In this document: one piece after another, positions 5,918 to 27,062 of the stretch
Layout: each line of letters begins with the position of its first letter
Position numbering within the stretch: the first letter of the stretch is position 1
DNA from: Octopus sinensis
Lineage: Eukaryota
DNA: 29,675 bases
Direction of reading: 5' to 3'
NCBI RefSeq assembly: GCF_006345805.1
Contig: NW_021836492.1
Location: forward strand, 1-29,675
Made by a program: the position numbers and the translations under genes
The notes under the pieces: generated by a model
Databases searched by the model: none
Seen by the model: the letters and a program-made list of their open reading frames with translations, nothing else
Told to the model about the DNA's origin: nothing

Positions 5918-6110
5918 GCCATGATAGATCGGTATCCACTACACACATTTTTTCTCTCCTTGTTTCTTTCTGTGTCCCTTTCTGTAGAAGAGCGAAGGCT
6001 CGAAACGTAAAATAATTTTTCAATTCCTGAGCGTTATACCAATACATCTGTTTGTTTTCTACACCACCTGTCTTCGTCTTTTGTTGTTTTTTTTCGTGTA
6101 GTCTCTCTCT
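5918..6110 (+). mobile_element. Short repeat family C with variant HHR-like motif (copy 1)
   Basis: Shared with 22848-23018 and 26586-26785. Motif ttt CTGTAGA a GAGC gaag GCTC GAAA CG TA aaa at about 5979-6012. Flanked by (TATG)n and (TA)n. Confidence 0.7.
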
Positions 6111-6271
6111 ATGTGTATATACATATATATAAATAAATATAAATATCATATATATATATAATATATATTATATATATATAATATATATATATCTAATATA
6201 TATATATATATATTATATATTATATAATATATATATATATATATAATATATATATATAATATATATATATA

Positions 6272-6430
6272 TAATACAAAATGGGACAGAACGCAAAAGA
6301 TCGGACAGATATGTGATACAAAAAGGAACAACAAACATCCAGATAGACGATACAAAGAAAACAAATGCAGGTCATTCGAAGTTTTCTTTCTTCAGTCAAG
6401 CACCAGATTATCCTCGCAATTTCGGCTGGT
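6272..6430 (-). repeat. Unclassified element next to a (TA)n tract, possibly a PLE pseudo-LTR fragment
   Basis: Minus strand has ccGAAAttgcg and CTGAAGA-aag-aaaa-ctt-cGAA followed by a T-rich tail. Single copy here and no complete HHR fold. Confidence 0.3.
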
Positions 6431-6779
6431 AGGTACGTATGTATGTGGAATGAAATAAACGATAAGGGAACAGGAATTACGAAATAAAATCCATTAGCAT
6501 ACATCTTTTTCTGCTATAAGATGCCGTGCACGCATAGCTGAATGCCTGTGCATCACATCATAGCTTACGCAGAGCTTCTAAATCGAGCTCTGTGTGCACT
6601 GCATTTGATAGCAGAAACACTTGTAAGCCAAGGATGTTTGATCACGTGATTCCTGTTTCTTTTTTTTTTCTTTTTTTTTTTACGTTTTGGCATCCATTCA
6701 ATTTCTTAATTCGTTTGGTCCTCAATTAACGCTTTTTTTCTGTATAAGGAGTTGTAACACCAAGATATTAGTATTGCAA

Positions 6780-7009
6780 GGCGGCGAGCTGGCAGAAACG
6801 TTAGCACACCGGGCGAAATGCTTAGCGGTATTGCGTCTGTCGTTGCGTTCTGTGTTCAAATTCCGCCGAGGTCGACTTTGCCTTTCATCCTTTCAGGGTC
6901 GATAAATTAAGTACCAGTTACGCACTGGGGTCGATATAATCGACTTAATCCGTTGTCTGTCCTTGTTTGTCCCCTCTATGGTTTAGCCCCTTGTGGGCAA
7001 TAAAGAAAC
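6780..7009 (+). mobile_element. Family D SINE with central gcctttcatcctttc-gggtcgataaa-agtacc domain (Meta-domain-like) and 17-bp TSD
   Basis: TSD agatattagtattgcaa at 6763-6779 and 7010-7026. Box A-like agctggcagaaacg and box B-like gttcaaattcc. Confidence 0.88.
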
Positions 7010-7045
7010 AGATATTAGTATTGCAATGCCCAAGCGAAATCTCTC

Positions 7046-7081
<36 letters not shown>

Positions 7082-7122
7082 AATAAGAAGATGAAAACAC
7101 ATACGTATTTGCATACATCCAT

Positions 7123-7513
7123 AGGCGTAGGTGTGGCTCTATGGTAAATAGCTTGCTTACAAACTACATGGTTCTGGGTTCAGTCTCACTGCGTGGCACC
7201 TTGGGCAAGTGTCTTCTACTATAGCCTCGGGCCGACCAAAGCCTTGTGAGTGGATTTGGTAGACGGAAACGGAAAGAAATCCGTCGTATATATGTATGTA
7301 TACATATATATATGTGTGCGTGTATATGTGTTTGACAACCTATACTGGTGTGTTTACGTCCCCGTTACTTAGCGGTTCGGCAAAAGAGACCGATAGAATA
7401 AGTACAAGGTTTACAAAGAATAATTCCTGGGGGTCGATTTGCTCGACTAAAAAGGCGGCGCTCCAGCATGGCCACAGTCAAATGGCTGAAACAGGAGTAA
7501 AAGAGTAAAAGAG
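7123..7513 (+). mobile_element. Family B SINE, full length
   Basis: Head aggcgtaggtgtggct...ggttcagtctc; tail gtaaaagagtaaaagag. Confidence 0.88.
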
Positions 7514-8082
7514 TATATCTGTGCGTGTGCGCACATGTTTGTCAGCGCATATTTTGCAACTTTTACTTTCTGCTCCTCTTCCTCTCCTCTCTCTCTCTCT
7601 CCCCTCCTCCACTCTCTCCTCCTCCTCCTCCTCCTCTTTCTCTCCTCTACCATTCTCTCTTGATTCCATTTATTTCCAACTAAATTCCTCACAACCAATA
7701 TCACAATAAGAGTTTATATCTCGTCGCGGTGATCTCGGAAATGTAATCTCCAAAATGAAAGTATTTTTCACCTAACATTCAATTAATCCGGATTAAAGAA
7801 TTAATGGAAAATTCCTACGGCAACATTTAATAATCTGTACCGTTTCTTTTCACCACATCTGTCATAACAAACCTAAGCCGGGTGTTTTCATAAACGATTC
7901 TCTTCACTAAGAGTATTTCTTCCACTTCTTTTTTTTTTTTTCCCCCCGATCTTACTAAAATACCCGATATTAAGATTAGTTAGAAGCTCAGTTATAGAGT
8001 TCTGGGTTTCGAATCCTGTAAGATTACAAAATCACCATTCCTTCATGTTTTATTTTTACCGTTTGTTTCATTTTATTTTGTA

Positions 8083-8593
8083 CTAGCAGTATCGCCCGGC
8101 GTTGCTCGTTTTGTAAGGGAAATAACTATATAAGCATTTTTAGTGAGTTATAGCAAAAAAATAGCAAAAAAATGGAATAAAAAATTATGGTAATTTTGGT
8201 GTCTTCAAGCCATGAAGTCGTTGTTCTAAAAGAACGCTGGTCTCCTTGACAATGCTTTACGACGTTGATTTCCTTACACTCCCTTCCCCACAGCTTCACG
8301 AGGGAGGGAAGAAGGGAGAGAAGCAACACAGGTGCAGGTGTGACCATGGACGCCAACTCCGCCGCCATCGACACACGAAATAATATGCGTTAAAATGGAA
8401 AAAAATGATGTTAAATTATTTTTAAAATCGTAGACTCATCGTAGACGCGCGCTAATACCCAGACGGGCTCGATATAAATCCCGACTATAAGATACCTGAA
8501 TTTGGTTAAACTGCACCACAAAATGTGGGAGTAGTTAGGAATCTAAATCGTAGGAGACAGACACTCACACAACTACAGTTTTATATATATAGA
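8083..8593 (-). mobile_element. Non-autonomous Helitron
   Basis: Minus strand starts TCtatatatataaaa and ends cgagcaacgccgggcgatactgCTAG with a degenerate subterminal GC hairpin. Inserted between A and T with no TSD. Confidence 0.8.
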
Positions 8594-8594
8594 T

Positions 8595-8950
8595 GTTAAT
8601 ATATTTTCTGTTGTGTCTAGGAAGAGTCATTTTCTTTTTGTGCCTTACAATTTAACACACACACCGGTAAAATTTCCACTTATTTTCATTTTTATTTTTC
8701 TAAAATTTTCATGGCGTCTTGCAACCTTTAAAATTTTCGTTGCGTCTTGCAACCTTTTCAATAGTCAAGACTATTGAAAAGGTTGCAAGATGCAACGAAA
8801 ATTTTAGAAAAAAAGAAATAAAAAATAAGTGGAAATTTTACCGGTGAGTAAAAAGGCACGAAAAGAAAATTACTCTCCCCAGACACAGCAGAATATGTTT
8901 CAACAAAGAATCTTGCAAACCAAATCCAAAAATGAAATATATTTTCTATT
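8595..8950. repeat. Long inverted repeat centred at 8767-8768 with an internal 28-29 bp tandem duplication
   Basis: taaaattttcgttgcgtcttgcaaccttttcaatagtc-aa-gactattgaaaaggttgcaagatgcaacgaaaatttta. Arms continue imperfectly to about 8600 and 8900. Confidence 0.9.
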
Positions 8951-9106
8951 TTCTTTTTTTTTATTTTGTAGGTGTAAGTCATCTATCACTCTGTGTAACA
9001 TCCCGACCTAGTGCTTTGAGTGGTAGCAGTAAGACATCGCCCTGTTTGACACCAGTTCCCAGTGCTTTGACTGATAGTACTAACAAAAAAAAGTAATAAT
9101 AATAAA

Positions 9107-9415
9107 ACACTCCGTCGGTTACGAAGACGAGAGTTTCAGTTGATCCAATCAGCAGAACAACCAGCTCGTGAAATTTACGTACAAGTGGCTGAGTACTCCA
9201 GAGACACGCGTATCTTTAACGTAGTTTGCAGAGAGACTCGGTGTGACGTAGAATGTGGCTCTTTGAAATACAGGTACACTTCAATTTTGCCAGTTGAGTG
9301 AACTGGAGCAACGTGAAATAAAGTGTTTTGCTCAAGGATACTACGTACTGCTGGGAATCGAACTGACGACCTTGCGATCGTGAGCCAAATACCCTACCCA
9401 CTAAGACACGTGCCT
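9107..9415 (-). mobile_element. CORE-type tRNA SINE sharing the 3' tail of family A
   Basis: 9107-9277 aligns to the family A tail. The body has tccttgagcaaaacactttatttc (CORE-like) and the head has box B gttcgattccc. Confidence 0.75.
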
Positions 9416-9649
9416 ACACAAGTAGCAGTAACGAAATCGCTCTGTCGAGTATCACTGCCTTCTATTTCCAGTGGCAGCAATAAAACATCGCCCTGCTTCA
9501 CGCCTAGACTTGGACTTTTGTGTCGTAGCGGTAACAACTGCGTCCTTTTTAACCCATTGCCTGCCATGAGCCCCATTTGGGGATCTGCTAAAAACAGTCT
9601 CACATCCGTTCTATTTAAAATGAATTGCTTGTGGACATTGCATTTGTGC

Positions 9650-10052
9650 TTTCGGTTTAAATACCACCTAAGTCGACTTTGCCTTTTAACTTCTTGGGAT
9701 CGATAAAAATAAATACCAGTTGGGCACTGGGCTCGATGTAATTGACTGATCCCACCCCCAAAATTGCTGGCCTTGTACCAAGATTAGAAATAATTAATTA
9801 TACTCGCGTATATCAAAATTATGAAGAACAGTTTTCCATACCGGTTTCAAGTTTTGGCACAAATCCAACAACTTTAAAGGGAGTATGTCAATCATATAGA
9901 TCCCAGTGTTCAGTTGGCACTTATTTTATCGACCCCGAAAAAATGAAATCAAATTTGACTCTGACAGCATATGAACTCAGAATTAAAAGCTGGAAGAAAT
10001 GGCGTTATGCATATTTTCGGCGTGCTAACGATTTTGCCAGCGCGCTTCCTTA
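9650..10052. mobile_element. Two diverged family D-like SINE copies in opposite orientation (9650-9790 +, 9840-10052 -)
   Basis: gtcgactttgccttt...gatcgataaaaataaataccag on plus, then acttattttatcgaccccgaaa...ttttgccagcgcgc (reverse complement of family D). Confidence 0.65.
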
Positions 10053-10339
10053 AACAATGTTGTTCATAGTGTCGAAGCATTAATATGAATTTCCAAAAGT
10101 GTTAAATTTTATTGAAAAAAAAATTTTCTGGCGTACATGTAGCGCACAATAGAGAACCACGTGCTCAGTATTTTGTAAATTTCTTGACGATCCCTTCATC
10201 TCTTTACATGCCGACGTTTCTCGTGCAAACATTAACCTGCAAATGTTCAGATTGTCAACTAACCACATCAGCCTTACCAGTCGGGCAGTGTAGTCTGCGA
10301 TCGTCATTAGCACTGCCCTATCTCTTCTGAGAAGCACTA

Positions 10340-11190
10340 CCATTGCCCCCACCACCACCACCACCACCACTACCAACCCCTCTGCCGAAGCAACAAGCAA
10401 CATAACCGCCATCACCATCACTGCCATCAACACCACTGCTAACAACACACCACCACCACCACCACCATCACCACTACAACCACAGCCATCACCATCATGA
10501 CCACAATAAGCTAGATGACCATCGCTCCTATTAACACCATCACCACCGTTACGACCAAACCCCACAAACACCACCATCGGCGCCACCACATAGAGATTCC
10601 GTCTGCCCAATTTCATTCCAAAAATATGAGTCGAAAAGAAGCGATCGAAAAAAAGTCATATTTCCCTAAAATACCACGCAGTGAGATCGAAACCGAAACC
10701 TTGCAGTTACGAGGAGAAACTCTAAACCATTCCGCCACACTGTGCCTACCCTATACTCTTCAACACCCGCACCATCGTCACCGCCCTGCACCTATACCAC
10801 CCACGTCCTTGCTACAAAGACCCGGATATATGCTTACTTCCTCAACAGCACGAAATCTGCAATTATCGTTAAGGCATGTTTTGCAGAAATGTGTGCGTAT
10901 GTGTGTGTGCGCGATTGTATTCATATATACATTTATGTGTGTATGTATGTATGTTTATATATATGTATGCTTGTATGTATGTATGTAATATATATATATT
11001 TATGTATGTGCATGTATGTATGTATGCGTGTGTGTCGATGTATATATGTATGTATATGTGTATATACGTATGTATGCATGCTTATATGTACGCAATATGC
11101 ATATATCAATGTATATATGTATGTACGTATATATACACGTAATATGTACCTATGTGTGTGTATTTATATATATGTATTCATATATGCGTC

Positions 11191-11229
<39 letters not shown>

Positions 11230-11405
11230 TGTGTGTGTGTGTGTGTATGTATGTATGCATGCATGTATATACGCATGTAATATACTTACGAATGCAATAT
11301 TTATACATTAATGTATATATGTATGTAGGTATGTATGCATGTAACTTGTGTGTGTGTGTGTAGTAGTAGTAGTAGTAGTAGTTAGTAGTAGTAGTAGTAG
11401 TAGCA
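10340..11405. repeat. (CAC)-rich tract, decayed family B head (10595-10750, -), then a long TATG/TA/TG/(TAG)n microsatellite
   Basis: Directly visible low-complexity sequence. Confidence 0.85.
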
Positions 11406-11622
11406 GTATAACTAGAGTAAACGCATACTCCCACTTTTACTCTGACTCCTACCTCACAAAACACGGCTAAGTGCTCGTTGGATTCATTAAGGAAAAATTG
11501 TCTGTTTTTCTGTTGCTTCTTAAACAACTTCAAAGCGAAACGCAACCAAAATCATGGTCTAAAATTCGTATGGTGCTAAAAAAAAAAGAGGCTCATTTTG
11601 TATCTGTCTAACATGTGTGTGT

Positions 11623-12377
11623 AGGGTGCGGTGAATAAAATGTCATCGCAATTACACTAAATGAAAATAACACAGACATCTCATTTTAACCCTTTCGCTA
11701 CCGTATTTATTTTGAGATGCTCTGTGTTTTTTTCAATTACTTTAACTATAACAAAGAATTTAGTAAAATAACTTAGTAATCATTAAGCTAGTGTTAGGAA
11801 TGTAAATTGTGACTCAGGCTTGGTGGACGATTTTAATTCAAAACTTATGAAAACAAGACATTTTACCACATAACCAGAGCCGGTTTTGGCCGGGTTAGTA
11901 ACAAAATTGCATAAAAATATCTTGAAATTCTAAAGAGTAAAATCGCGACTGGCTTCAACCACGGCCTCCAGATGTCTTCGAAATCCGCTGCAACTCTTCT
12001 GGACGGTCTCCTTATTTAAGTTCGTGAATGCTGCCATACTCCTTGATTTCAGTTCAAAACAAGGAGTTTTGTTAGTCTCTCGTTCAACTGCGCCCCACAT
12101 ATAATCAAAGGAGTTGCACTCTGGGGAGTTAGGTGGCCAAATGTCCGGGGTGATATGGTCACAAAAATTGTCTGACAGCCATGACTAGGCTCTCCTGCTT
12201 GTGTGGCATGGTACAGAGTCCTGTTGCCAGTCATAGGGTCTTCCAGCAGCCACCCTCTTGACCCAGGGCAGTACTGCCTCCTCCAGGTACTTGATGTAGG
12301 CCTCTGTGTTAAGTCTGAGGCTATGTGGGAAGATCAGTGGAGGCATGACGTCGCCATCACTAGTGATCACTCCAAAC
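11623..12377 (-). mobile_element. Tc1/mariner superfamily DD37D (maT) transposon, 3' half with pseudogenised transposase
   Basis: FGVITSDGDVMPP...WQQDSVPCHTSRRA*SWLSDNFCDHITPDIWPPNSPECNSFDYMWGAVER...RRHLEAVVEA. There are 37 residues between the second and third catalytic D, one in-frame stop, and a TIR-like end agggtgcggtgaataaaatgtc at 11623. Confidence 0.9.
11686..11906. mobile_element. piggyBac-like MITE nested in the maT 3' end
   Basis: Begins TTAA-CCCTTTCGCTACC. The opposite end (agtaacaaaa) is a decayed inverted terminus. Confidence 0.5.
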
Positions 12378-12469
12378 GCCCTAACACACCCACACGCACA
12401 TACACAGACACACACGGACACACACACATATATTCTCTCTCTCTCTATGTGTGTGTGTGTGTGTTGTGT

Positions 12470-12675
12470 ACCAAAGTAAGCACATAAATGCGAAACAAGG
12501 TGGAAAAATAGTACTCGAATACCAGAGCTAGAGTAATATGCTTTATTCAAAAGCAGCAGAAATATCACAAAAGCTGTCACTCAGAGTTTCACGTTCTAAA
12601 CAAAACTGTCCGACGAACGGGAACGTGAAACTTTGAGCGACAGTTTCTGGGATTTGTTGCTGCACTTTTATAAAG

Positions 12676-12676
<1 letters not shown>
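12470..12676. mobile_element. Inverted-repeat element, family F2, carrying a CCGACGA-core HHR-like motif
   Basis: Arms 12540-12596 and 12621-12676. Plus strand aaaactgt CCGACGA acg ggaa cgt GAAA ctttgag cg acagttt (12602-12646). Homologous to 22533-22780. Confidence 0.75.
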
Positions 12677-12737
<61 letters not shown>

Positions 12738-13144
12738 CAAAAAACACCCCATTTTCCTATGTTACTTCATAACTTTTAAGAAAAAAACCAACGTTCGTCA
12801 AATATACAAATTTCACATGGATATTATTGAAGAGCAGAAGAGTTATCTATAAATGCTTAACAATATAGAATTCCATTATTCTATATTAGCTAAGGCTATG
12901 AACTATATTTGGAATACAGGACAATATAATGGATTTTACACATAACTATTATGGATTATTACAGAAAACTAACCAAGGAAGTATATATGGATTAAAAGAC
13001 TCTCATACTAAAATGTACTTACCAACATCAAAAGCAGTAATTTTAAATTTATATTTGAAACAAACGCCATTTTACAGTATTTCTTCATATAAAAAAAAAA
13101 CAAAAAAACTACCATTTGATATATTATACAAAATTCAAATTTTA

Positions 13145-13236
13145 TATCTCTGAAGAGCAGAAGAGTTGTGTATAAATGCTTATCAACATAGGATTTCATT
13201 ATAGGGACAGCACTTCTGTGAAACGATCGTAAGATG
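13145..13236 (+). ncRNA. Type I hammerhead ribozyme, canonical core, long stem II (family F4)
   Basis: Stem I tatct/agatg; CTGAAGA 13150-13156; stem II GCAGAAG/CTTCTGT plus gttgt/acagc; GAAA 13220-13223; palindromic stem III CGATCG; GUA cleavage triplet ending at 13231. Confidence 0.8.
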
Positions 13237-13414
13237 CTCTAAAGATTTAATTCGAAACTTTTAAACTGTCATATGCATTATATATTTATACTTATACATT
13301 TTTACATATATTTATATATATTTATATTTTTAATACAACAATTATTTTACATACGTTTATATCTTTCTGAAGAATTTTCTAATATTGATTTCCTGATATT
13401 AATAATAATAAATT

Positions 13415-13444
13415 ATAATATATATATATATATATGTGTATGTG

Positions 13445-13484
<40 letters not shown>

Positions 13485-13525
13485 ATATGTGTGTGTGTGT
13501 GTGTATAATAGCACTATGACCCGGC

Positions 13526-13568
<43 letters not shown>

Positions 13569-13600
13569 TAATAATATAATAAAATAATGATAATAATAAA
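13415..13600. repeat. (TA)n/(TG)n and (TAA)n microsatellites
   Basis: Directly visible. Confidence 0.95.
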
Positions 13601-13873
13601 AGGGTAAAATTAATTAATTAATCAATCAATTAATTAATAATTTTACCAAGTAGATCTGTACGTTATAATAAACTTTATAGGTAAAATTATACAAATATTC
13701 TATAATTATAAACATAATTATAATTAGGGGTCAAGTAATTGCTTCACCACATACCGAATTTAGAAATAGGAGTTAAAAATTCCTTTTCTACTACCGTAAG
13801 AATCTCCCAGACAGTATCACACTTTTTTACGTAGGCAAAGAGAAAAATAATGAATCCACACGACTCCGATTAC

Positions 13874-13933
13874 CTACAGACGCGTTCCGAGATTAAAGTA
13901 TTTAATTTACTTACTTTCCCGTCATCAGTGTAG
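13874..13933 (-). ncRNA. Type I hammerhead motif (F1) with one core substitution (GAAA to GGAA)
   Basis: ctaca CTGATGA c GGGA aagta..tactt taa TCTC GGAA CGCG TC tgtag. Stem I is perfect. Confidence 0.7.
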
Positions 13934-14161
13934 CATTTCCATTATAAAATTTGAAAGTGCTAGAGTTAAATACGTACAGGATCGATGACGGGAAGTAAGT
14001 AAATAAAATACTTTAATCTCGAAACGCGTCTGTAGGTAATCGGAGTCGTGTTGATTCGGTATTTTTCTCTTTTTGCCTACGTAAAAAACTGTGATACTGT
14101 CTGGGAGGTTTTTACGGTAGTAGAAAAGGAATTTTTAAACTCCTATTTCTAAATTCGGTAT

Positions 14162-14380
14162 TACTCTTTACTCTCTTTTACTTGTTCCAATCATTTACTG
14201 CGGCCATGCTGGAGCACCGCCTTTAATCGAGCAACTGGACCCCGGGAATTATTCTTTTGTAAGCCCAGTACTTATTCTATTGGTCTCTTTTGCCGAACCG
14301 CTAAGTGATGGGGACGTAAACACACCAGCATCGGTTGTCAAGCAATGCTAGGGGGACAAACACAGACACACAAACACACA

Positions 14381-14427
<47 letters not shown>

Positions 14428-14608
14428 TATATACACATATTATACGACGGGCGTCTTTCAGTTTCCGTCTACCAAATCCACTCACAAGGCTTTGGTCGGC
14501 CCGAGGCTATTGTAGAGAAGACACTTGCCCAAGGTGCCACGCAGTGGGATGAACCCCGGAACCATGTGGTTGGAACAACCTACTTACCACACAGCCACTC
14601 CTGCGCCT
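14162..14608 (-). mobile_element. Family B SINE, full length, inserted into the F1 right arm
   Basis: F1 sequence resumes at 14609 (gtgaagcaattagctgacccctaattataat). Confidence 0.9.
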
Positions 14609-14704
14609 ATGTGAAGCAATTAGCTGACCCCTAATTATAATTATCACACATTCCTTCCAAGCACTGCTGTAAATAGCGAATGTGAACTAAAACGTTAAAA
14701 CTTA

Positions 14705-14786
14705 GTGCGCATGCACAACAGAGTTCGAAATCAATCTGCGCCAAGCGGTTTTACTCTGAGTACTTTAGCTTCGTTACCATAGCAAC
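14705..14786. promoter_or_regulatory. Candidate RFX X-box plus NRF1-like palindrome
   Basis: GTTACCATAGCAAC at 14773-14786 matches the X-box consensus. GTGCGCATGCAC at 14705-14716. Motif match only. Confidence 0.3.
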
Positions 14787-14864
14787 AGTCCGGATACTTA
14801 TTGATCAGACCACATATATTCCTCCTTCGACAGGACTTAGGTCCGTTGCAGGATTATTTATATA

Positions 14865-14993
14865 GAGTTGAGTGGAATTGAGCAATGAAGTGAAATGAAG
14901 TGCCTTGCTCGAGAACACAACACCCGACCCAGGAATCGAAACCACAATCTTAAGATCATGAGTCCAGCACCCTAACTACTGAGCCATATACCC
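14865..14993 (-). mobile_element. Head and CORE fragment of the SINE type seen at 9107-9415
   Basis: gtgaaatgaagtgccttgctc...aggaatcgaaacc...ccctaactactgagcca. Confidence 0.65.
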
Positions 14994-15400
14994 TACTTCT
15001 ACAATATACCCGGCTGAAATTGGAGTGCGTCTAATATACAAGCGCGTCTTTTACGCCATCAATTACGGCAAATAAAGAAGCAGCATAAACGTGGAATTGG
15101 TAAATTAGAGAGAAAACCAAAAATGGTGCTAAAAGAACGAAGCATAATTCGTGAGTAAACCTTTTACACTGAACAGTCTAGCAGAGAATAATGAAGAATG
15201 GTTTCCTTGTGACACTTCGAAGACGAATAATGAAAAAAAGCCCTCTTGTTTCGAATTGTTTCCAACTTTCTCCACAGTTCTGCCAATAATGTCAGAGGGT
15301 AAATATCGATTAGTCGTCAATATCGGTTATCGTATTATATGATAAATGGTTGGAACTGTTCGCTGTTCGTTGCAGGAATCATCGCAGCAATGATTGAATA

Positions 15401-15402
<2 letters not shown>

Positions 15403-15436
<34 letters not shown>

Positions 15437-15847
15437 GGGAATGTATGTGCATGTGTATGTGAGTGTGTATGCGTGTAAGAGAGTGTTAGTGTGTGTGTTC
15501 GTGTGTGTGTGTTAGTGTATGAGTTTGCCTCTGTGTGAGTGTGTGTGAGTGTGTGAGCTAGTGAGAGTATGTGTGTGTGTATGTGAATGTATGTGAATGC
15601 GTGCGCGTGTGTATGTGTGCACGTGTGTGAGTGTATATGTGTTTGTGTGTGTTTGTTAATGTGTGTGAGTTTGAGTGTGTGTATGTGTGTGTGAGTGTGT
15701 GAGCTAGTGAGAATATGTGTGTGCATGTATGTGAATGTGTGCGCGTGTGTATACGTGTACGTGTGTGAGTGAGTGTATATGTGTGAAATGGTGTTAGTAC
15801 GTGTGTGAGTGTATGTGTGTTTGTGTTTGTTATGCGTGTGTGTGTGC

Positions 15848-15916
<69 letters not shown>

Positions 15917-15930
15917 ATTAGTGCGTGTGT
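15403..15930. repeat. Long degenerate (TG)n tract with an internal duplicated unit
   Basis: gagtgtgtgagctagtgaga occurs at about 15547 and 15692. Confidence 0.9.
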
Positions 15931-15945
15931 GTATTTTCCGTTCAG

Positions 15946-16010: not shown

Positions 16011-16149
16011 GTAAGTCATGAAAACGAATTGAGTTGATTGGATAAAATATTTTATTGATAGAACAACGGTTGGAATATTATGGCTTCGACTACCATAATT
16101 AGAATTGGAAATTACGAAGAGTATACTTCAAGAACTGTGATTGGTTATC

Positions 16150-16844: not shown

Positions 16845-17267
16845 CGCAAGCCCCGAATGTTTGGTGGGTGGGGGAAGTCGATAAAATCGACCCCAGTACG
16901 CAACTGGTACTTATTTTATCGACCACGAAAGGATGAAAGGTAAAGTCGACCTCGGCGGAATTTGAACACAGAACGTAACAGCAGACGAAATACTGCTAAG
17001 CATTTCGCCCGGCGTGCTAACGTTTCTTATTTCTTTATTGCCCATAAGGGGCTAAACATAGAGGGGGAAAACAAGGACAGACAAAGGGATTAAGTCGATT
17101 ACATTGACCTCAGTGCGTAACTGGTACTTATTTTATCGATCCCGAAAGGATGAAAGGTAAAGTCGACCTCGGCGGAATTTGAACTCAGAACATAACAGCA
17201 GACGAAATACCGCAAAGCATTTCGCCCGCTAAGTTACGGGGCGTAAACATAGGTGGGGTGACAAGCA

Positions 17268-17304
<37 letters not shown>

Positions 17305-17488
17305 ATGACTGGCCTCTTTCAGTTTCCGTCTACCAAATCCACTCACATGATTCAGTCCCACTGCGTGGCATCTTGGTCAGCCCGAGGCAATAGCAGAAGA
17401 CACTTGCCCAAGGTACCATACAGTGGTACTGAACCCAGAACCATGTAGTTAGTAAGCAAGCTACTTACCACACAGCCACTCCTACGCC
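16845..17488 (-). mobile_element. Dimeric family D SINE (16845-17228) abutting a partial family B SINE (17227-17488)
   Basis: ggtacttattttatcga...aaggtaaagtcgacctcggcggaatttgaac occurs twice; the family B head ends at 17488. Confidence 0.85.
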
Positions 17489-18064
17489 TTGTTACTTTTC
17501 TTTCCATTTCTTTTTCATTTGTCTTCGTCTCTCCTCCCCCGCTTCTTTCTGTCCTATCTTTCTCACCTTTATTTATTTATTTATTTATTTCCTTCTTTCT
17601 TTCTTGCTTTCATTCAATGTTTCCCTCCTTCATTTTTCCCCTTCTCTCTTTTATTGCAATTCATTCATCACGTTCGAATTTCAGTTTACAAAAGAAGAAA
17701 AAGCCATACAAAATAAAAGCAAAACCGGCAGATTGCGATCTGGAACGGAAAATTCTCGAAGATGTTACATTCTTTGACTTTTAATTAGTTGACAAACTTT
17801 CTACAAGAAACCATTCCAACATTGTAGTGAGTTTTACCAATCATTCTAATTACTTTCTCATTAATAATGATCTTGTTTAATTAAAAGATACCTTTTGACA
17901 ATCTTCATAATATTATTTTGTTGCAAAATTTAATAAATCACTGACTTAAACTTTAGCTCGTCTGTTACATGATAGAATTTCTTTGCATTCACTTGACTTG
18001 CTAAAAACAGTAGCCAAGCCTTCAGTCCTCGCGTTAAACATTTCTTCTTCAAATCCTAAAACTT

Positions 18065-18790
18065 ATAGAGCCGGTTATACAGTTTCCATTGCGTATGATT
18101 GACATTGCAACATTTCCCCTGGACGGGACGCATGACCTTGCAGGTGGGGCCCAGCTAGAGTTTTCTTCTGGTCGAGTAGCCCATCCCGCCCGAAAGGTCC
18201 CTGAATAAGGATTGTTTAAGGATGTTGAACGAACCACCCATGTTTCCAAAGGTGAATTATCCAAACCCCAAAGAATTCCTCTCAACACGTGGCTATTGAT
18301 GCTCCCCCACTACTTCTGCTCATGATCAGAGATGCACATATTGTTAACCACTAAGAGACATGGTCAACTGGTTAAGGTCAAGCAACTGACAAGCAAATCT
18401 GTGGTATTGAGCAGAATATTTGCTGTCGCCCATCTTTTATACCAAAACAAAACAATGTACATGATAACACTTCCAATCAGTTAAGATCAGAAGCCACGAG
18501 AGCCACTGTCTGGTACTGCATCAGGGCATTTATTATTATTATTATTGTTATTATTATCATCATCATAATCATCATCATCATTATCATCATTATCATCATC
18601 ATCATCTCATTCATTATTATTATTATTATTATTTATTATATTATTGAGTGAGAGCAGTTCATGCCATCAAAATGACACTGGGGTAAAATATACGAAGCCC
18701 AATATACCCATCATGACTACCCGTCTGATAAGGTACACCAGGCACATGCATCACAACCATATGTGCGCGACATGGTGATCTCATATCAAG
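18065..18790. repeat. SINE tail fragment (18065-18131, -) plus unclassified interspersed sequences embedded in (ATT)n/(ATC)n tracts
   Basis: The reverse complement gcgtcccgtccagggg...ggaaact...aaccggc matches the tail at 25755-25810. Segments 18132-18530 and 18645-18790 border directly on (TAA)n runs. Confidence 0.5.
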
Positions 18791-18793
18791 ATA

Positions 18794-18839
<46 letters not shown>

Positions 18840-19029
18840 GCAGCGAGCTGGCAGAATTGTTTAATTAACAAATATTTTTTTTACTTTTGGTAAATTTCCA
18901 AAACGAATGGAGATCGAGCAGAATGTGTGAACCAACCGGAAATTTCTCTGTTGGCCATTGCTGACCCGGTGCTAGCAAAAAAAAACCCATTCTCAATGGC
19001 TGAAAAACATCTCAAAGCAGATCTGACCA

Positions 19030-19410
19030 GGAAGTTAATATAGCTTCAGGCCATGGAGATCAACCACTGTGACAGCTACAGTAGAAAGCAGTGGAGCAAC
19101 ACCTTCCCCTCTTCGTGATGTTTGTGGACTTTTCTAAGGTATCTGACGCGATGGACCGAGAAACATTATGGGAAATCCTGGAAACTTATAGATGCCTTGA
19201 GAAACTTGCTAACATCATCAAGCAATTCCACTCAGGAATGAGAGGGATGGTCTCAGTTGGCGGAGTATTTTTGGTGAAGTGTTTGGAGTAAATCATAGTG
19301 TGAAGCAGGGGTCTGTGTTTGCCCCTACCTCCACTCTTCTCTCTTTACCTCACAGCTGTGCTTGGCACCATGAGGGTTAATCTGCACAAAAAGGATTTCA
19401 TCCGCAGCAA
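19030..19410 (+). mobile_element. Decayed RTE-clade LINE reverse transcriptase fragment
   Basis: SFRPWRST...EKAVEQHLPLFVMFVDFSKVSDAMDRETLWEIL...IIKQFHSGM...GVNHSVKQGSVFAPT..LFSLYL, corresponding to the RT motifs FVDF.KAFD and GV.QG...P.LF. Confidence 0.85.
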
Positions 19411-19531
19411 AACTAAAAGCGTTTGCGCTTCGAATTTTCGTTAATCACTGCTTTTTCGAGCTATATGGGGTATTAGAAATAGCAAATAAATAACTGTTTT
19501 GCTTGAATGTTAAATTATACTGCAGAATACG

Positions 19532-19946
19532 TTACTCTTTTACTATTTTACTTGTTTAAGGCATTTGACTGTGGCCATGCTGGAGCACCACCTTTAGTCG
19601 ATTGAGCAAATCGACCCCAGGACTTATTCTTTGTAAGCCTAGTACTTATTCTATCGCTCTCTTTTGCCGAACCGCTAAGTTACGGGGACGTAAACACACC
19701 GGCATCGGTTGTCAAGCGATGTTGGGGGGACAAGCACAGACACACAAACATATACACACACACTTACATATATACATATATACGACGGGCTTCTTTCATT
19801 TTACGTCTACCAAATCCACTCACAAGGCTTTGGTCGACCCGAGGCTATAATAGAAGACACTCGCCCAAGGTGCCATGCAGTGGGACTGAACCCGGAACCA
19901 TATGGTTCGTAAGCAAGCTACTTACCACACAGCCACTCCTACGCCT
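19532..19946 (-). mobile_element. Family B SINE, full length
   Basis: Consensus match. Confidence 0.88.
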
Positions 19947-20163
19947 ATGATATTTTCAATGGACATTGTATGAAAATTCCATAACATTTTATATATTTTC
20001 GCAATGCCAGTTTCAGTCCCGTCTTGGGATTTCATCAACGAGTGTAGATCTGCTTTCAATGTGAATGAATAAATGAATAGTCTACTTATACATCCACAAT
20101 TACAAACGGTTAAAGAAACGGATAGACCAACTTGCATATATAACGTGGATGAAAGGTAGAGAA

Positions 20164-20397
20164 GCAGGAGTGGTTGTGTGGTAAGTAGCTTGCTAACCAA
20201 CCACATGGTTCCGGGTTCAGTCCCACTGCGTGGCATCTTGGGCAAGTTGTCTGCTATAGTCCGGGCCGACCAATGCCTTGTGAGTGGATTTGGTAGACGG
20301 AAACTGAAAGAAGCCTGTCGTATATATGTTATATATATATATATATAGTATATAATATATATATATATATATATAATATATATATATATTATATATA

Positions 20398-20431
<34 letters not shown>

Positions 20432-20630
20432 TTGTCCCCCTAGCATTGCTTGACAACCGATGCTGGTGGTTTACGTCCCCGTCACTTAGCGGTTCGGCAA
20501 AAAGAGACCGATAGAATAAGTACTGGGCTTACAGAAAGAATAAGTCCCGGGGTCGAGTTGCTCGACTAAAGGCGGTGCTCCAGCATGGCCGCAGTCAAAT
20601 GACTGAAACAAGTATAAAGAGTAAAAGAGA
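20164..20630 (+). mobile_element. Family B SINE, head-to-head with 19532-19946
   Basis: Consensus match with internal (TA)n. Confidence 0.88.
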
Positions 20631-21159
20631 GAGAGTAAGCTGAATAATAATAAACAGAAAGTGGCCGAAATTTATTGGTATTAAGAAGTGGTGGTTAGAG
20701 ACTGGGGAGGAAAAGGAGGAGAGAGAAAAAATATAAGAAGGGGAGAGACAAAATATAAAACCACGGTGTGTGTTTTTGAAAGTGTGGTGAAGCGATAGAG
20801 TATGAAAGGCGAGGTGCATAAGGCTCGGTCTTTTTTTTTTATGAAACAATTAACCGGTTATAGCCGTGGTCGTGGGGGAATTAAAAGGAGTTGAGAAAAG
20901 AGGTAATTAAGAACTATTTTAATTAAAGGATCATAGAATATTATTTTAAGATTAAAAATACGGGGTTTAGTTGTATTAGGGATAAATGACTCATTAGGAG
21001 TGTTTCAAAATGCCTGAAGTGGTAATAAAAGTAGAAAAGCTGCCTCATTTTATTGAGAAATTTGTTATTTGTATTGTAAAACGGTTTGGTTTAAATTAGA
21101 ATAAGGTGAAAGTGACACAGCAGTGGTTAAGGTGAGCTAAGGAAGTTTCTATTATTATT

Positions 21160-22090
21160 GGTTTCAAAGTTTGGCACAAGGCCAGCAAGTTCTGGGGAAT
21201 GAGTAATCGATTACATCAACGGCAATGCTTGACTGGTTCTTATTTTATCGACCCCAAAAAAGAACGAAATGCAAAAACGACCTCGACGGAATTTGAACTC
21301 AGAACTCAGAAGACGGACGAAATGCCGCTGAGTATTTTGTCCGGCGTGCCACCGTTTCTGCCAGCTCGCAGCCTCAAAGTTTGTATTTACATCAGTTTCG
21401 AATTTTAGCACGAGTCTAGCAATTTCAGGGAAGGGAATAAGTCGATGGCATCACCCCCATTGACCAACTAGTATTTATTTTATCGACCCCGAGAGAACGA
21501 AAGGTAAAGTCGACCTCGGCGGAATTTGAACTCAGAACATAAAGGCAGAAAAAATGCCACTGAGCATCTTGGTCGGCGTGCTAACGTCTCTACAGCTCGC
21601 CGTCTTACAAATATTCAAATATTAATAAAAACGTTAAGGCGGCGAGCTGGCAGAAACGTTAGCACGCCGGGCGAAATGCGTAGTCGTATTCCGTCTGCCG
21701 TCACGTTCAAATTCAGCGGGGAACCTTGGGCAAGTGTCTTCTACTACAGCCTCGGACTGACCAAAGCCTTGTGAGTGGATTTGCTAAACGGAAACTGAAA
21801 GAATCCTGTCATGGATATATATATATATATATATATATACGTATGTGCGTGTGTGTGCGTGTGTGCGTGTGTGTGTGCGTGTGTGTGTATGTGTGAAAAT
21901 GTGTGCGTTTGTCCCCCACTACTGCTTGACAACCGGTGTTGTGTTTATGCCCTGTGACTTAGCGGTTCGGCAAAGGAGACCGACAGAATAGATATCAGGC
22001 TTAAGACAAAATAAGCACTGGAGTCGATACGTTCGACTAAAATTCTTCTTGGGGGTGCTCCAGCAGGGCCGCAGTCAAATAACTGAAATT
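21160..22090. mobile_element. SINE cluster: two family D copies (21160-21372 and 21395-21606, -), a D head (21637-21713, +) joined to a family B body (21723-22090, +)
   Basis: Segments align to the family D and B copies elsewhere in the window. Confidence 0.75.
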
Positions 22091-22134
22091 AAAAAAAAAT
22101 AGAATACCAGTAATTACATCTTTTGTAAGAAATA

Positions 22135-22495
22135 TTGTCACAGAATTGGCTGGGAAATGAGAGAATAAGATGAAGAAAAAAAGCATGGAATAAACTGCAT
22201 AGAAATAGAGAAGTTTATATATCGTTAAGTAGAGAGAAAAAGCATGAGAAAAATGGTGAAGAATTGTAAATTTAAGATCAATAGTTATATGGAAAAGTAG
22301 GATTGAGTGGGAGACCCCGAGGAAAAGAAAGTGTAGAAGTATTCTTGAAATAATGTAAAGAATATTTAACTGCAGAACGTGAATATGGATGAGTGCAGCC
22401 TTTGTAGAGGTTTACAGAGAAATTGTAAAGCAGTGCTAAGCGGCATAACCCAAGAGAAGGAACCGAGATTCTAAGTGGAATAGAGACGAAAAAAC
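22135..22495 (+). mobile_element. Possible highly decayed LINE 3' end
   Basis: Purine-rich. Residual WLG and GRPRGK words resemble the RTE C-terminus. Confidence 0.3.
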
Positions 22496-22532
22496 AGGTC
22501 ATATAATATCATATCATATCATATATATGTAT

Positions 22533-22780
22533 GCTTTATTAATAAAACTATAAAGACATTACAAAAACTGTTACTCAGAGTTTCACGTTACCGTTTGTCG
22601 GACAGTTTTGGTTGAAAATAGAACAAAATATGAACCATATTTTGTTCCATTCTCAACCAAAACTGTCCGACAAAAGGGAACGTGAAACTCTGAGTAAGAG
22701 TTTTTGTGATATCTTTGCAGCTTTATAAATAAAGCCTCTAGTATTCGAGTACTATTTTCTTCCACTTTGTTTCGCATTTA
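22533..22780. mobile_element. About 200-bp hairpin of family F2 with an HHR-like motif in each arm
   Basis: Arms 22533-22632 and 22636-22735 with a 3-nt loop. Minus: aaaactgt CCGACAA acg gtaa cgt GAAA ctctgag TA acagtttt. Plus: aaaactgt CCGACAA aag ggaa cgt GAAA ctctgag TA agagtttt. Confidence 0.85.
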
Positions 22781-22847
22781 TATGCTTATTCTGGAATATA
22801 TTTTTTCTTTCTTCTCCTTTTCCATATATATATATTTTTTTTTTTTC

Positions 22848-23017
22848 ACATTTTTTCTCTCCTTGTTTCTCTCATTGTTTTTTGTGAGTCCTTTTCTGTA
22901 GAAGGGCGTAGGCTCGAAACATAAAAGACTTTTTCTATTCCTGAGCGTTATACTAATACATCTGTTTGTTTTGTACACCACCTATCTTCGTCTTTTGTCT
23001 TTTTCGTAAACTCCCCC

Positions 23018-23018
<1 letters not shown>
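22848..23018 (+). mobile_element. Family C repeat (copy 2)
   Basis: tttt CTGTAGA a GGGC gtag GCTC GAAA CA TA aaag. Confidence 0.7.
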
Positions 23019-23056
<38 letters not shown>

Positions 23057-23174
23057 GATCTCATTCGTCTGTTTGAATTCGGAAGTACTGGTCGTTGGAT
23101 ATACGTTGTCTGATGTCGCCTGGTCAGATAAGTATGTTAATTTTTCAGTGCTCTCAAATTTAATATTTTCAATT

Positions 23175-23257
23175 ACTGTACTGAAGACGAGAATGAGAGA
23201 GTAGAAATAGGATTTTACATTTTTCACATCTCTCTAACTCCGAAACGCGTATATAGT
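23175..23257 (+). ncRNA. Type I hammerhead ribozyme, canonical core (F1 family, diverged copy within 23125-23430)
   Basis: Stem I actgta/tatagt; CTGAAGA 23181-23187; stem II GAG..GAGAGA/TCTCTC..CTC with a C.C mismatch at its base; GAAA 23242-23245; CGCG; GUA site ending at 23251. Confidence 0.75.
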
Positions 23258-23480
23258 TAATCAAAGCCGGGTGGATTCGTTATTTTTTCTCTCTTCTTTA
23301 TCTGCGTGAGTTGTTGAGTATTGCTGTTTGGGAGATTTTTTTATGGTAGTGAAATTGTAGTTGTTAACTGGTATATCTAAATTTCGGTATGTGGTGATGC
23401 AATTTTTGCTGAACCCTAATTATAATTATACTCATAATTATAGAAGTAATATATATATATATATATATTATAGATATATA

Positions 23481-23520
<40 letters not shown>

Positions 23521-23521
<1 letters not shown>

Positions 23522-23871
23522 GACTGCGGCTTATGCTGAGCACCGCCTTTAGTCGAGAGAATAGACAACAAGACTTATACTTGTAAGCCTAGTACTTATT
23601 CTTATTTTGCCGAGCCCTAAGTTACGGGGACGTAAACACACCAGCATCGGTTGTCAAGCGGTGGTGGAAGGACAAACACAGACACAAGCATACATATATA
23701 TATTTATACGACGGGTCTCTTTAGTTTCCGCCTACCGAATCCACTCACAAGGCTTTGGTCGGCCGAAGCTATAGTAGAAGACACTTGCCCAAGGTGCCAC
23801 GCAGTGGGACTGAACACGGAACCATGTGGTTCGTAAGTAAGCTACTTACCACACAACCATCAGCTACGCCT
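23521..23871 (-). mobile_element. Family B SINE, diverged
   Basis: Consensus match; the tail is lost in (TA)n. Confidence 0.8.
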
Positions 23872-24174
23872 ATATAAGTAAGTAAACTATGAAATATATA
23901 TAAAAAAAGTGGTGGGTCGCTGAGGGTAATATGTGGCCATGAGAGGGGCGGTGGCCCAAAATGTTTGAGAAACTCTGGTCTAAAGTAAATGGTGATTGGC
24001 TTGGCTGGCTTGTCAGAATTTGAACATACATGATAGTGAAACAAAACAGAATAGACCAGAGCCTTTTAGTCCGGCGCTCCATCAGGTTTGCCTCTTTTCA
24101 TCTCTTTCTATTCACCCACCTCAGCTTATTATTAAAATTTTTATTTACATTCGCAAAAGGGCACAGATTTATAG

Positions 24175-24910
24175 AGGTGGTGGCGGTGGTGGTGCGGGTG
24201 AGGATGATGAATGTGGCAGCTGTGGCGATGGCGATGGTGGTAGTGATAATACGTGTAGTGTTGTTGTGTTGTTGTTGCTGTTGTTGTTGGTGGTGGTGGT
24301 GGTTGTGTGGTGGTGGTGGTTGTGGTGGTGGTGTTGTGTGGTGGTTGTGGTGGTGGTGTGGTGGTGGTGTTTTGGTTGTGGTGGTGTTGGTTGGTGGTGT
24401 TGGTCATGGTGGTGGTGGTGTTGGTGGTTGTAGTGGTGGTGGTGGTGGTGGTGGTGGTGGTGGTTGTGGTGGTAGTGGTTTTGTAAACGATGTCGATGGT
24501 TATGATGACGGTGACGGTGACAGTGGTGATAGTAGTGGTTGTGGTGGGGTGTGGTCACATGGTGGTGGTGTGGTGGTGGTTGTAGGGGTGGTGGTGGTTG
24601 TGGTGGTGGTGGTGGTGGTGGTGGTGGTGGTTGTGGTCATGGTGGGGTGGTGGTGGTGGTTGTAGTGGTGTTGTGGTGGTGGTGGTGGTGTGGGGGTGGT
24701 AGTGGTGGTGGTGTTTGTGGTGGTGTGGTTTGTAGTGGTGGTGGTGGTTGTGGTGGTGGTGGTTGAGTGGTGGTAGTGGTTGTGGTGGTGGTGGTTGTGG
24801 TGGTGGTGTGGTTGTAGTGGTGGTGGTGGTGGTGGTGGTTGTAATGATGTCGATGGTTATGATGACGGTGACAGTGGCAGTGGTGATAGTAGTGGTTGTG
24901 GTGGAGGTGG
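24175..24910. repeat. (GGT/GTT)n low-complexity array with internal duplication
   Basis: The cassette gatgtcgatggttatgatgacggtgac...agtggtgatagtagtggttgtgg occurs at about 24489 and 24846. Confidence 0.9.
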
Positions 24911-25554
24911 TATGTTGATGAGCTCTCGGCTGTCTAAAGTGCAGACTATGAAATATAAATGAATGAACGGGTGCAATGAAGAACAATGCGTTTCTTCGCG
25001 TTACAGCTTATTAAAATAACGATTTCTTGAGATTAGGCACGTAGCCATATTTCTTTTTAATGGAGTGACAAATTGCAAATCGTGACATTCCTGTTTTTTA
25101 AGCACATTCCCCAACCTTCCCTAACCCAAAATGATACAAAAATTAAAAAAAAACAAAACATTTCAACGTAATTGAAGTGAACAGACTTGAACCGGGAATC
25201 GAAACCGCTTCTTAGATTTGACATCATTCGCCTCCTCAAATGTTAGCGCTTGCTCTCATGATTTCATTTACGCAAATTTAGAGAGAGGGCGAGGAAGAAG
25301 TTAGCGGATGTAGACGACACTTAGTTGGTTCCTGTTATATTGGGTAGAAATAAATAATGAATTAATGAAATTTAAACTATGATGTTGTGAGGTTCATGCC
25401 TTCCTCCCAATAGTGTTTTTTTTGCCATTCTGTGATGTTAGAGAACGGATGAAAGTGTCAGTAAACGGAATGTTCTGTAAGTTTGTGAAGGTCAATCGAA
25501 GAACCGCACACTACCCAGTGCGCCCTCTTGTGGTGAATTTGCAGAAAGTGTAAA

Positions 25555-25853
25555 GTGGAGGCACATGGCCAAGTGGGTAGAGCAGCGGACTCGCGGTCGA
25601 GAGATCGCGGGTTCGAATCTCAGACCGGGTTATTTGTGTGTTTATGAGCGAAACACCTAAGCTCCAGGCGGCTCCGGCAGAAGGCAATGGCGAACTTCTG
25701 CTGACTCTTTCACCACAACTTTCTCTCACTCTTACAGCTCGCCTGCGACGGACCGGCGTCCCGTCCAGGTGGGGAACCTATACGCCAAGGAAACCGGGAA
25801 ACCGGCCCTTATGAGCCAGGCGTCGCTCGAGAAGGAACAACCAACAAACAACA
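25555..25853 (+). mobile_element. tRNA(Arg)-like SINE with family A head and body but a different 3' tail ending in (CAA)n
   Basis: gtggaggcacatggccaagtgggtagagcagcggacTCGcggtc...ggttcgaatctc; body ctctttcaccacaactttctctcac as in family A; tail cctgcgacggaccggcgtcccgtccagg. Confidence 0.85.
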
Positions 25854-25892
25854 ATAAAGCATCCAGCAATATCTTAGAATTTATACAGATAT

Positions 25893-26303
25893 AGGCGCAG
25901 GAGTGGCTGTGTGGTAAGTAGCTTGTCTACCAACCACATGGTTCCGGGTTCAGTCCCACTGCGTGGCACCTTGGGCGAGTGTCTCCTACTATAGCCTCGG
26001 GCCGACCAAAGCCTTGTGAGTGGATTTGGTAGACGGAAACTGAAAGAATCCCGTCGTATATATGTATATATATATATGCGTGTGTGTGTGTTTGTTTGTA
26101 TGTATTTGTCCCCCTAGCATTGCTTGACAACCGATGCTGGTGTGTTTATGTCCCCGTTACTTAGCGGTTCGGTAAAAGAGACCGATAAAATAAGTACTGG
26201 GCTTACAAAAGAATAAGTCCCGGGGTCGATTTGCTCGATTAAAGGCGGTGCTCCAGCACGGCCGCAGTCAAATGACTGAAACAAGTAAAAGAGTAAAAGA
26301 GTA
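25893..26303 (+). mobile_element. Family B SINE, full length
   Basis: Consensus match. Confidence 0.9.
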
Positions 26304-26423
26304 TACAATATCGATTCTCCAGAACATCTGGTTCCAGATCCTTTCCTGATTAGTGATGTTTCCGAATCAAAAATAGTCACCTAAGTCAACACACACGAAA
26401 TTAAACAAATATTAAATTTATTT

Positions 26424-27062
26424 AGGAGTGGCTGTGTGGTAAGTAGCTTACTTGCCAACCACATGGTTCCGGGTTCAGTCCCACTGCTTGGCACGTTGGG
26501 CAAGTGTCTTCTACTATAGCCTCGGGCTGACCAAAGACGGAAACTGAAAGAAACCCGTCGTATAAATATGTATATCTATATGTATGCCATGATAGATCGT
26601 TAGCCACTACGCACATTTCTTTTCTCCCCTTGTTTCTCTTCTTGTTTTCTGTGTCCCTTTCTGTAGAAGAGCGTAGGCTCGAAACGTAAAAGACTTTTTC
26701 TATTCCTGAGCGTTATACCATACAGCTGTTTGTTTTGTACACCACCTGTCTTCCGTCTTTTGTTTTTTTCCATAAACTCTCCCTAATGTATGTATGTATG
26801 TATGTATGTATGTATGTATGTATGTATGTATGTATGTATGTATGCGTGTGTTTTTGTGTCTGTGTTTGTCCTTCCACCATCGCTTGACAACCGATGCTGG
26901 TGTGTTTACGCCCCCGTAACTTAGCGGTTCAGCAAAAGAACCCGATAGAAATAAGTACTAGGTTTACAAAGAATAAGTTCTGTTGTCGATATGATCCACT
27001 AAAGGCGGTACACCAGCATGGCCGCAGTCAAATGACTGAAACAAGTAAAAGAGCAAAAGAGT
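26424..27062 (+). mobile_element. Family B SINE with a family C element (26586-26785) nested in its internal microsatellite
   Basis: B 5' half 26424-26562; C insert containing cttt CTGTAGA a GAGC gtag GCTC GAAA CG TA aaag (26657-26692); (TATG)n; B 3' half 26845-27062. Confidence 0.85.

Follow-up and report, generated by a model that had tools for sequence, protein, structure and literature searches.

The 29,675-nt contig NW_021836492.1 of the Octopus sinensis assembly GCF_006345805.1 (the window, analysed at its full length) contains three copies of a repeat, family C, each with a minimal type I hammerhead motif in which A6 of the catalytic core is replaced by U. The family is very abundant in public sequencing runs and U6 is found throughout it. 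We favour, at about an even chance, an explanation in which family C would be a non-autonomous unit derived from the pseudo-long terminal repeat (pLTR) of a Penelope-like element (PLE) and moved by a PLE enzyme. Its hammerhead would be a slow, dimer-dependent natural core variant that still cuts after A17 and is kept by selection.

A minimal hammerhead core with U at position 6

An earlier note on this DNA, made from the sequence alone, had described a minimal hammerhead-like motif in three copies of a successful repeat, with U in place of A6 in each, and all of this was recovered, on the plus strand (Table 1). A 25-nt pattern allowing up to 3 mismatches gave three matches in the window and none in each of 100 shuffled versions, and a profile built from the three copies gave exactly these three matches and no fourth. 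Following the hammerhead numbering of the consensus in PMC4209133, copy 3 has the core C3 U4 G5 U6 A7 G8 A9, an extra A and a 4-bp stem II that begins with G10.1-C11.1, followed by G12 A13 A14 A15.1, then C15.2 G16.2 U16.1, and A17. All 12 pairs of the three-helix layout are intact in this copy. Helix III is without a loop and could form only as 2 bp or between molecules via the ACGU palindrome, for which we computed a duplex energy of −1.7 kcal/mol; the corresponding ACAU of copy 2 is unpaired. Over the three copies, 91.7% of cells are paired as compared with 18–58% in slid controls, the structure having been derived from the same sequences.

When compared with the type I core consensus (C3 U4 G5 A6 N7 G8 A9 / G12 A13 A14 A15.1 / U16.1 H17), the three copies depart from it at position 6 only and match it at all remaining core positions. 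By its sequence, family C is a core variant of the hammerhead and not a consensus member. The features of PLE minimal hammerheads (extra nucleotide 9/10.1, G10.1-C11.1, palindromic 15.2–16.2, short stem I and U-rich flank) are present, with the palindrome broken in copy 2. Nucleotide 9/10.1, G10.1-C11.1 and the palindrome are reported as conserved in PLE minimal hammerheads (Cervera and de la Pena, PMC4209133); by our hand count, 54 of the 56 PLE rows published there have the extra nucleotide, 30 of them as A, and all 56 have A6. Since the extra nucleotide is present in so many published rows, the extra A of family C is ordinary and U6 is the sole departure. The earlier note was right that an extra A is present.

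The change between GAAG and GTAG in the loop of stem II is as the same note described it. It had also pointed to stem II (GAGC/GCTC, with GGGC/GCTC in copy 2) as a substitution that keeps pairing. The substitution is there, but the resulting G·U is private to copy 2 and absent among the listed variants of the family; being one-sided and in one copy, it offers no covariation support. In addition, two of the three copies have helix-breaking changes that the note had not flagged: G16.2>A in copy 2, a CpG decay, and G1.4>U in stem I of copy 1.

It is very improbable that the motif is not a hammerhead at all and instead a chance look-alike in a repeat or a motif acting at the DNA level. Rfam gave no match at any of the three sites when the whole window was scanned, and none on 26600–26760 even at E ≤ 10. 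On the other hand, a strict minimal-hammerhead descriptor accepting any base at position 6 found 0.007 matches per shuffled window, none of them with U6 (300 shuffles), and a descriptor allowing up to one core change found 0.02 (150 shuffles). All PLE-specific features occur together, and variation within the family, described below, obeys hammerhead rules. The core also contains UGUAG, which we take to be a pseudouridine-synthase motif; we set this aside since N7 varies.

Table 1. Positions of family C copies, their motifs and related features in the window.
Feature	Position	Strand	Details
Family C repeat, copy 1	5917..6104	+	~190 bp, PLE pLTR-like; flanked by (ATGT)n and (TA)n microsatellites
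Minimal type I hammerhead motif, copy 1	5974..6015	+	C3 5982, U6 5985, extra A 5989; predicted cut after A17 6009; G1.4>U shortens stem I
Family C repeat, copy 2	22847..23016	+	~28 bp short at 5′ end; followed by (TA)n, then a different hammerhead-bearing repeat
Minimal type I hammerhead motif, copy 2	22888..22929	+	C3 22896, U6 22899; predicted cut after 22923; G·U at 10.2-11.2; G16.2>A breaks helix III palindrome
Family C repeat, copy 3	26586..26784	+	199 bp; within internal TA/TG microsatellite of SINE-like repeat (SINE, short interspersed nuclear element)
Minimal type I hammerhead motif, copy 3	26653..26694	+	12/12 pairs intact; stem I 26657-26660/26689-26692, plus 2-bp extension past 2-nt bulge; C3 26661, U6 26664, N7 26665, extra A 26668; stem II 26669-26672/26677-26680; G12-A15.1 26681-26684; palindrome 26684-26687; predicted cut after 26688
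Host SINE-like repeat, 5′ half split off by copy 3	26424..26585	+	
(ATGT)n plus 3′ half of host SINE-like repeat	26785..27062	+	
Second minimal hammerhead motif with U6	787..826	−	core CUGUUGA 822-816, extra U, 4-bp stem II, palindrome AUAUAU, A17 791

Variation across the family in public sequencing runs

Part of the stretch was found in 21 of 24 public runs, which have four organism labels. We sampled one run per label (X1, X2, X3 and X5, all DNA-type or unlabelled) and aligned their contigs to 26575–26785 at 80% likeness with a variant threshold of 2%. The number of contigs aligned, 13,388 in X1, 9,770 in X2, 18,171 in X3 and 6,554 in X5, means that family C is very abundant, although contig counts are not copy numbers. 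The shares given below are depth-weighted per contig, without haplotypes, and are not copy counts; they come from the variants listed, which are 40 of 55 rows in an unstated ranking order.

From the totals for each kind of change, every T>A place can be assigned to 26701, 26716 or 26721. A6 is thus below 2% in all four runs, and U6 is family-wide. G6 is below 2% in X1 and X2. The 15 unlisted rows are of the kinds A>G, C>T and T>C, and also T>G in X3 and X5, and could conceal transitions (including U6>C) or a low-share U6>G; unlisted core variants are probably rarer than 3.75%, the peak of the weakest listed row. A rare relative with A6, for example an autonomous partner, would lie below the 2% threshold. 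An invariant position 6 is by itself no proof that U is preferred.

The listed non-CpG core variants occur at N7 and H17 only, the two being positions that the consensus leaves free. N7 is variable at 22–30% overall (A>C 12–15%, A>G 9–15%) and H17 shows A>U at 20–25%, with G17 not among the listed variants. Of 12 non-CpG core sites, two are listed as variable; that these should be exactly N7 and H17 has P = 0.015, or P = 0.005 when each of the three events is counted on its own. Of 26 constrained positions, 1 is a listed non-CpG variable site, versus 7 of the 20 positions in the 3′ flank (Fisher p = 0.014); with the free motif sites added to the flank, the comparison is 1 of 26 versus 11 of 28 (p = 0.002). 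Because A6 is below 2%, the N7 and H17 lineages carry U6 and so diversified after U6 was in place. To judge from these alleles, this suggests that selection continued after U6 arose.

Elsewhere, CpG sites vary at 2–15%, G12>A is present at 2–5%, and the stem I bulge is highly variable. C15.2>U and G16.2>A have equal shares in three of the four runs, which could reflect symmetric CpG decay or a subfamily with a compensatory U-A pair. X3 has an allele spectrum apart from the other runs (24% versus 63–70% at 26641), which suggests at least two host lineages among the runs. Two further observations were given no weight. A depth peak over the motif was dropped as evidence of conservation, since copy 3 has private indels to either side of the motif that can produce such a peak. 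U7 is below 2% in family C, which would fit an inactive helix that U7 makes too stable; this was not counted because a second motif in the window has U6-U7 (Table 1, minus strand). Proteins predicted in antisense frames, which we took as spurious, had no homologue and no sign of coding.

The earlier note had proposed either a new core variant or a dead ribozyme amplified by a non-autonomous element. The variation at the family level leans towards a constrained motif over a neutral dead one. If the motif were dead, A6U would have killed the ribozyme in a non-autonomous master, which would have been amplified since PLE mobilisation needs no cleavage. The motif would now be evolving neutrally, and the variant pattern would come from chance, biased mutation or recombination that reshuffled older diversity. 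Such a history, which we consider unlikely, would agree with the strongly deleterious effect of A6 changes in vitro, the proliferation of Naiad PLEs without canonical hammerheads (PMC8557442), the helix-breaking changes in two of three window copies, the decay at G12 and the few independent events behind the constraint signal. It is harder to reconcile with the restriction of core variants to N7, with its two alleles, and H17, or with the single variable site among the 26 constrained ones. Moreover, N7 neighbours position 6, so import of its alleles from A6 relatives would carry A6 as well, yet A6 is below 2%.

Possible activity of U6, the carrier and a putative link to PLEs

Substitution of position 6 has a natural precedent. 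A6C occurs in phage Bcep176, where kobs (the observed cleavage rate) is < 0.1 per min and one or two hydrogen bonds are expected to be lost (Perreault et al, 2011, PMC3088659). C6 prefers Mn2+, with 0.31 per min at 1 mM Mn2+ and 0.0041 in Mg2+ (Naghdi et al, 2020, PMC7151607). In the account that we favour, an ancestral master copy would already have had U6, and the reverse transcriptase/endonuclease (RT/EN) of a PLE would have spread this high-copy, pLTR-derived repeat of ~200 bp into TA-type microsatellites. In tandem or multimeric transcripts, two motifs would pair by their ACGU palindromes, giving helix III in trans, and a slow cut after A17 would, according to the PLE model, free unit-length RNA for reverse transcription. 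U6 would reduce the rate without abolishing the selected function. It may also hold a lone monomer off through a predicted inactive helix in which U4-G5-U6 pairs with A15.1-C15.2-G16.2. This helix would tie up bases on which helix III in trans depends; either a brake or damage is a fair reading of it. More tentatively, and with some doubt, U6 could be a working core, fixed in a PLE family of very high copy number and maybe in a wider clade that includes the minus-strand motif, acting as a brake through the monomer helix and/or a metal shift like that of A6C, so that cutting would occur only in dimers or in particular ion conditions.

Several observations weigh against this account. At 0.3 mM Mg2+, a fast hammerhead that cuts at 0.3 per min falls to 3.55e-6 per min with A6C (PMC7151607), single CUGA-turn mutants were poorly active in a deep scan (Roberts et al, PMC9901934), and PLE minimal hammerheads with A6 are reported to be slow too, even as dimers (PMC4209133; review PMC6765202). 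U6 lifts the predicted probability of the inactive monomer helix from 0.23 (A6) to 0.86 at 37°C, and the monomer folds no better than shuffled sequences (z −0.26 to 1.17). Among the three copies, which cannot support covariation as they are too few, none of the 12 pairs has a two-sided change; 2 have one-sided changes and 2 differ by unpaired cells only. G1.4>U, which breaks a stem I pair with no compensating change seen, has a share of 5–9% across the runs. The selection signal amounts to about 3–6 lineage-level events, the flank variants used for comparison are possibly linked or due to alignment slippage, and the limits on the shares and on the unlisted rows given above apply. Dimer cleavage requires tandem copies, and there is no tandem family C copy in the window. 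A backward joint from 26718 to 26588, as expected for a tandem, was seen in one contig at depth 5 in one of the four runs (X5), and short repeat contigs rarely span such joints.

The folding prediction would also suit a signal that does not cut. A PLE protein or host factor would then recognise the fold or sequence to start or end reverse transcription, and U6 would remove or damp cleavage, which may help a parasite of the PLE machinery to make longer transcripts that stay intact. This would account for a kept anatomy together with the loss of a catalytically important base. However, free N7 and H17 without G17 is a rule of catalysis, although a protein that evolved on hammerheads might ignore these sites too, and no protein partner or binding evidence emerged from this analysis. 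We regard such a signal as unlikely.

The motif sits within a longer repeat of 170–199 bp with ~90% identity between copies, and all three copies end in a TA or ATGT microsatellite. The two halves of the SINE-like repeat that flank copy 3 are collinear with an uninterrupted copy at 25899–26310, and we presume this host to be a tRNA-derived SINE of the octopus type. The SINE-like repeat is abundant, with many more copies; its internal TA/TG microsatellite, the landing site of family C, is immediately preceded by a small hairpin. An insertion bias for (TA)n has been reported for Neptune-type and Naiad PLEs (PMC8557442), and the three copies of family C show such a microsatellite bias. We infer a PLE origin from the motif together with the insertion site. 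No Pfam match to RT or GIY-YIG was detected among the 148 open reading frames (ORFs) scanned of the 230 in the window (≥ 45 aa), so that, on these 148, an ORF with RT and GIY-YIG between pLTRs, which defines a PLE, is not seen. We considered whether copies 2 and 3, which are spaced 3.8 kb apart, could mark the length of a PLE and rejected this, as SINEs and microsatellites lie between them, with no RT/EN match in the ORFs scanned, and each has its own flanks. The family C pattern had no match in the metagenome contigs, viral contigs or prokaryote genomes scanned. A general minimal-hammerhead pattern matched 5 viral loci, taken as chance because none had a stem II by inspection.

The copies could also be the 5′-truncated 3′ ends of an autonomous PLE bearing U6 and not a separate non-autonomous family, which would alter the carrier and not the ribozyme question. 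Most PLE hammerheads are reported to be solo truncated ends (PMC4209133), copy 2 is shortened at its 5′ end, and a longer upstream body would escape the run alignment, which spans 26575–26785 only. In contrast, copies 1 and 3 begin at the same base at their 5′ ends, inside microsatellite flanks, and the ORFs scanned contain no RT or GIY-YIG match. We find truncation a somewhat unlikely origin.

The descriptor that detects family C also found the minus-strand motif at 822, which has U6 as well. It is a single copy, with no blastn relative in the window and no similarity to family C. It keeps 10 of 10 pairs when compared with copy 3, with 3 two-sided and 3 one-sided changes, homology being unproven. 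It possibly represents a second U6 lineage or family, as far as its letters go. It was chosen by a descriptor that demands pairing and could be a decayed A6 copy. Apart from family C, the window has two one-off core variants, this motif and a decayed A13>G; these points also weigh on its use as support for our account. By our own estimate (2 draws from 30 possible changes), the chance of A6>U from a random decayed copy is ~7%. The motif is suggestive only. It adjoins the microsatellite tail of an RTE-like remnant, where a (TGA)n/(TAA)n tail comes after a 146-aa ORF (218–658, plus strand) with no Pfam match; the ORF presumably resembles the C-terminus of an RTE-type long interspersed nuclear element protein.

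Other hammerhead motifs in the window have A6. A canonical type I motif at 13146–13237 (plus strand) has a long stem II (63 nt between the boxes) and a 6-nt helix III palindrome. Another hammerhead-bearing repeat family, at 13751–14161 and 23181–23445, has an A6 core, a long AU-rich stem II and a CGCG palindrome. Its first copy has the inverted arrangement common in PLE insertions and a motif at 13928 (minus strand) with A13>G; its copy at 23181 (plus strand) directly follows family C copy 2. Rfam gave a weak Hammerhead_1 match at 27898–27947 (minus strand; 21.5 bits versus a gathering threshold of 34, E 0.68) with an A6 core. A degenerate CTGAAGA core is present at 6395 (minus strand) in an opposite-orientation repeat just downstream of family C copy 1. 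Long near-perfect inverted repeats at 22533–22735, 8730–8805 and 21565–21678, which may be palindromic insertions or resemble miniature inverted-repeat transposable elements, gave sub-threshold Rfam microRNA matches.

Relation to known hammerheads

Perreault et al excluded core mutants in repeats from their alignments (PMC3088659), and the core search in the Naiad PLE study used cuganga (PMC8557442). Genome searches of this kind would not pick up a U6 family, because they either demand CUGANGA or leave out repeat-borne core mutants. In the literature searched, which also included PMC6155905, PMC12192606, PMC11014351, PMC10886601 and PMC6962438 in the parts accessible as text, there was no natural U6 hammerhead and no description of family C; the PLE hammerhead variant survey of Lunse et al (2017), which is the largest and could hold U6, Ruffner et al (1990) and data present only in figures were outside this scope. 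The same literature gave no rate for an A6U hammerhead, and one A6U match concerns twister (PMC11662667). A search for CUGUAGA returned no ribozyme paper by title among the matches listed. The supplements of Perreault et al are a weak negative for U6, as a control motif was present only in an oligonucleotide table. The main-text parts covered of a repeat annotation of Octopus vulgaris (PMC13282606) do not mention ribozymes.

A6 is treated as invariant. If U6 cuts, core rules and descriptors would need widening, and thousands of natural copies would be a ready mutational series; if U6 is a working core, searches with CUGANGA descriptors would have missed a whole class. If the motif is constrained without cutting, this would bear directly on which of two roles makes PLE hammerheads matter, cutting or serving as a recognition signal.

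The A6C hammerhead of Bcep176 (PMC3088659, PMC7151607) is, like family C, a natural change at position 6. Its activity is low but detectable, with Mn2+ preferred over Mg2+, and was measured, whereas family C is known from sequence alone; the base is C and not U, and it occurs at one phage locus as compared with thousands of retroelement copies. The animal non-LTR retrozymes (PMC7229834; bioRxiv 10.64898/2026.07.22.740005) share with family C a short non-coding unit, of 170–400 nt, with a type I hammerhead. They are thought to be moved by PLEs and monomers are common, as in our view of family C. They are described as tandem arrays with mostly canonical hammerheads and circular RNA, whereas family C is known from DNA as dispersed monomers with a minimal variant core. 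In the Schistosoma PLE Cercyon (PMC4209133), U3-A8 is a compensated pair, unlike U6, which is without a visible compensating change, and it too is a family-wide core variant missed by a consensus descriptor.

In its letters, family C is laid out to work like a PLE minimal hammerhead, yet it fails the consensus at A6. The published PLE rows have A6 in all cases, under a descriptor that required consensus boxes; A17, which family C has, is uncommon among them (5 of 56 by hand count), and no linked RT/EN ORF is shown for family C. The U-rich 5′ flank, stem I of 3–4 bp, nucleotide 9/10.1, G10.1-C11.1, absence of loop 3, palindromic 15.2–16.2, H17, AU-rich 3′ flank and many solo copies are common to both (PMC4209133), and the stem II arms of the Acropora row in that study are identical to those of family C copy 2.

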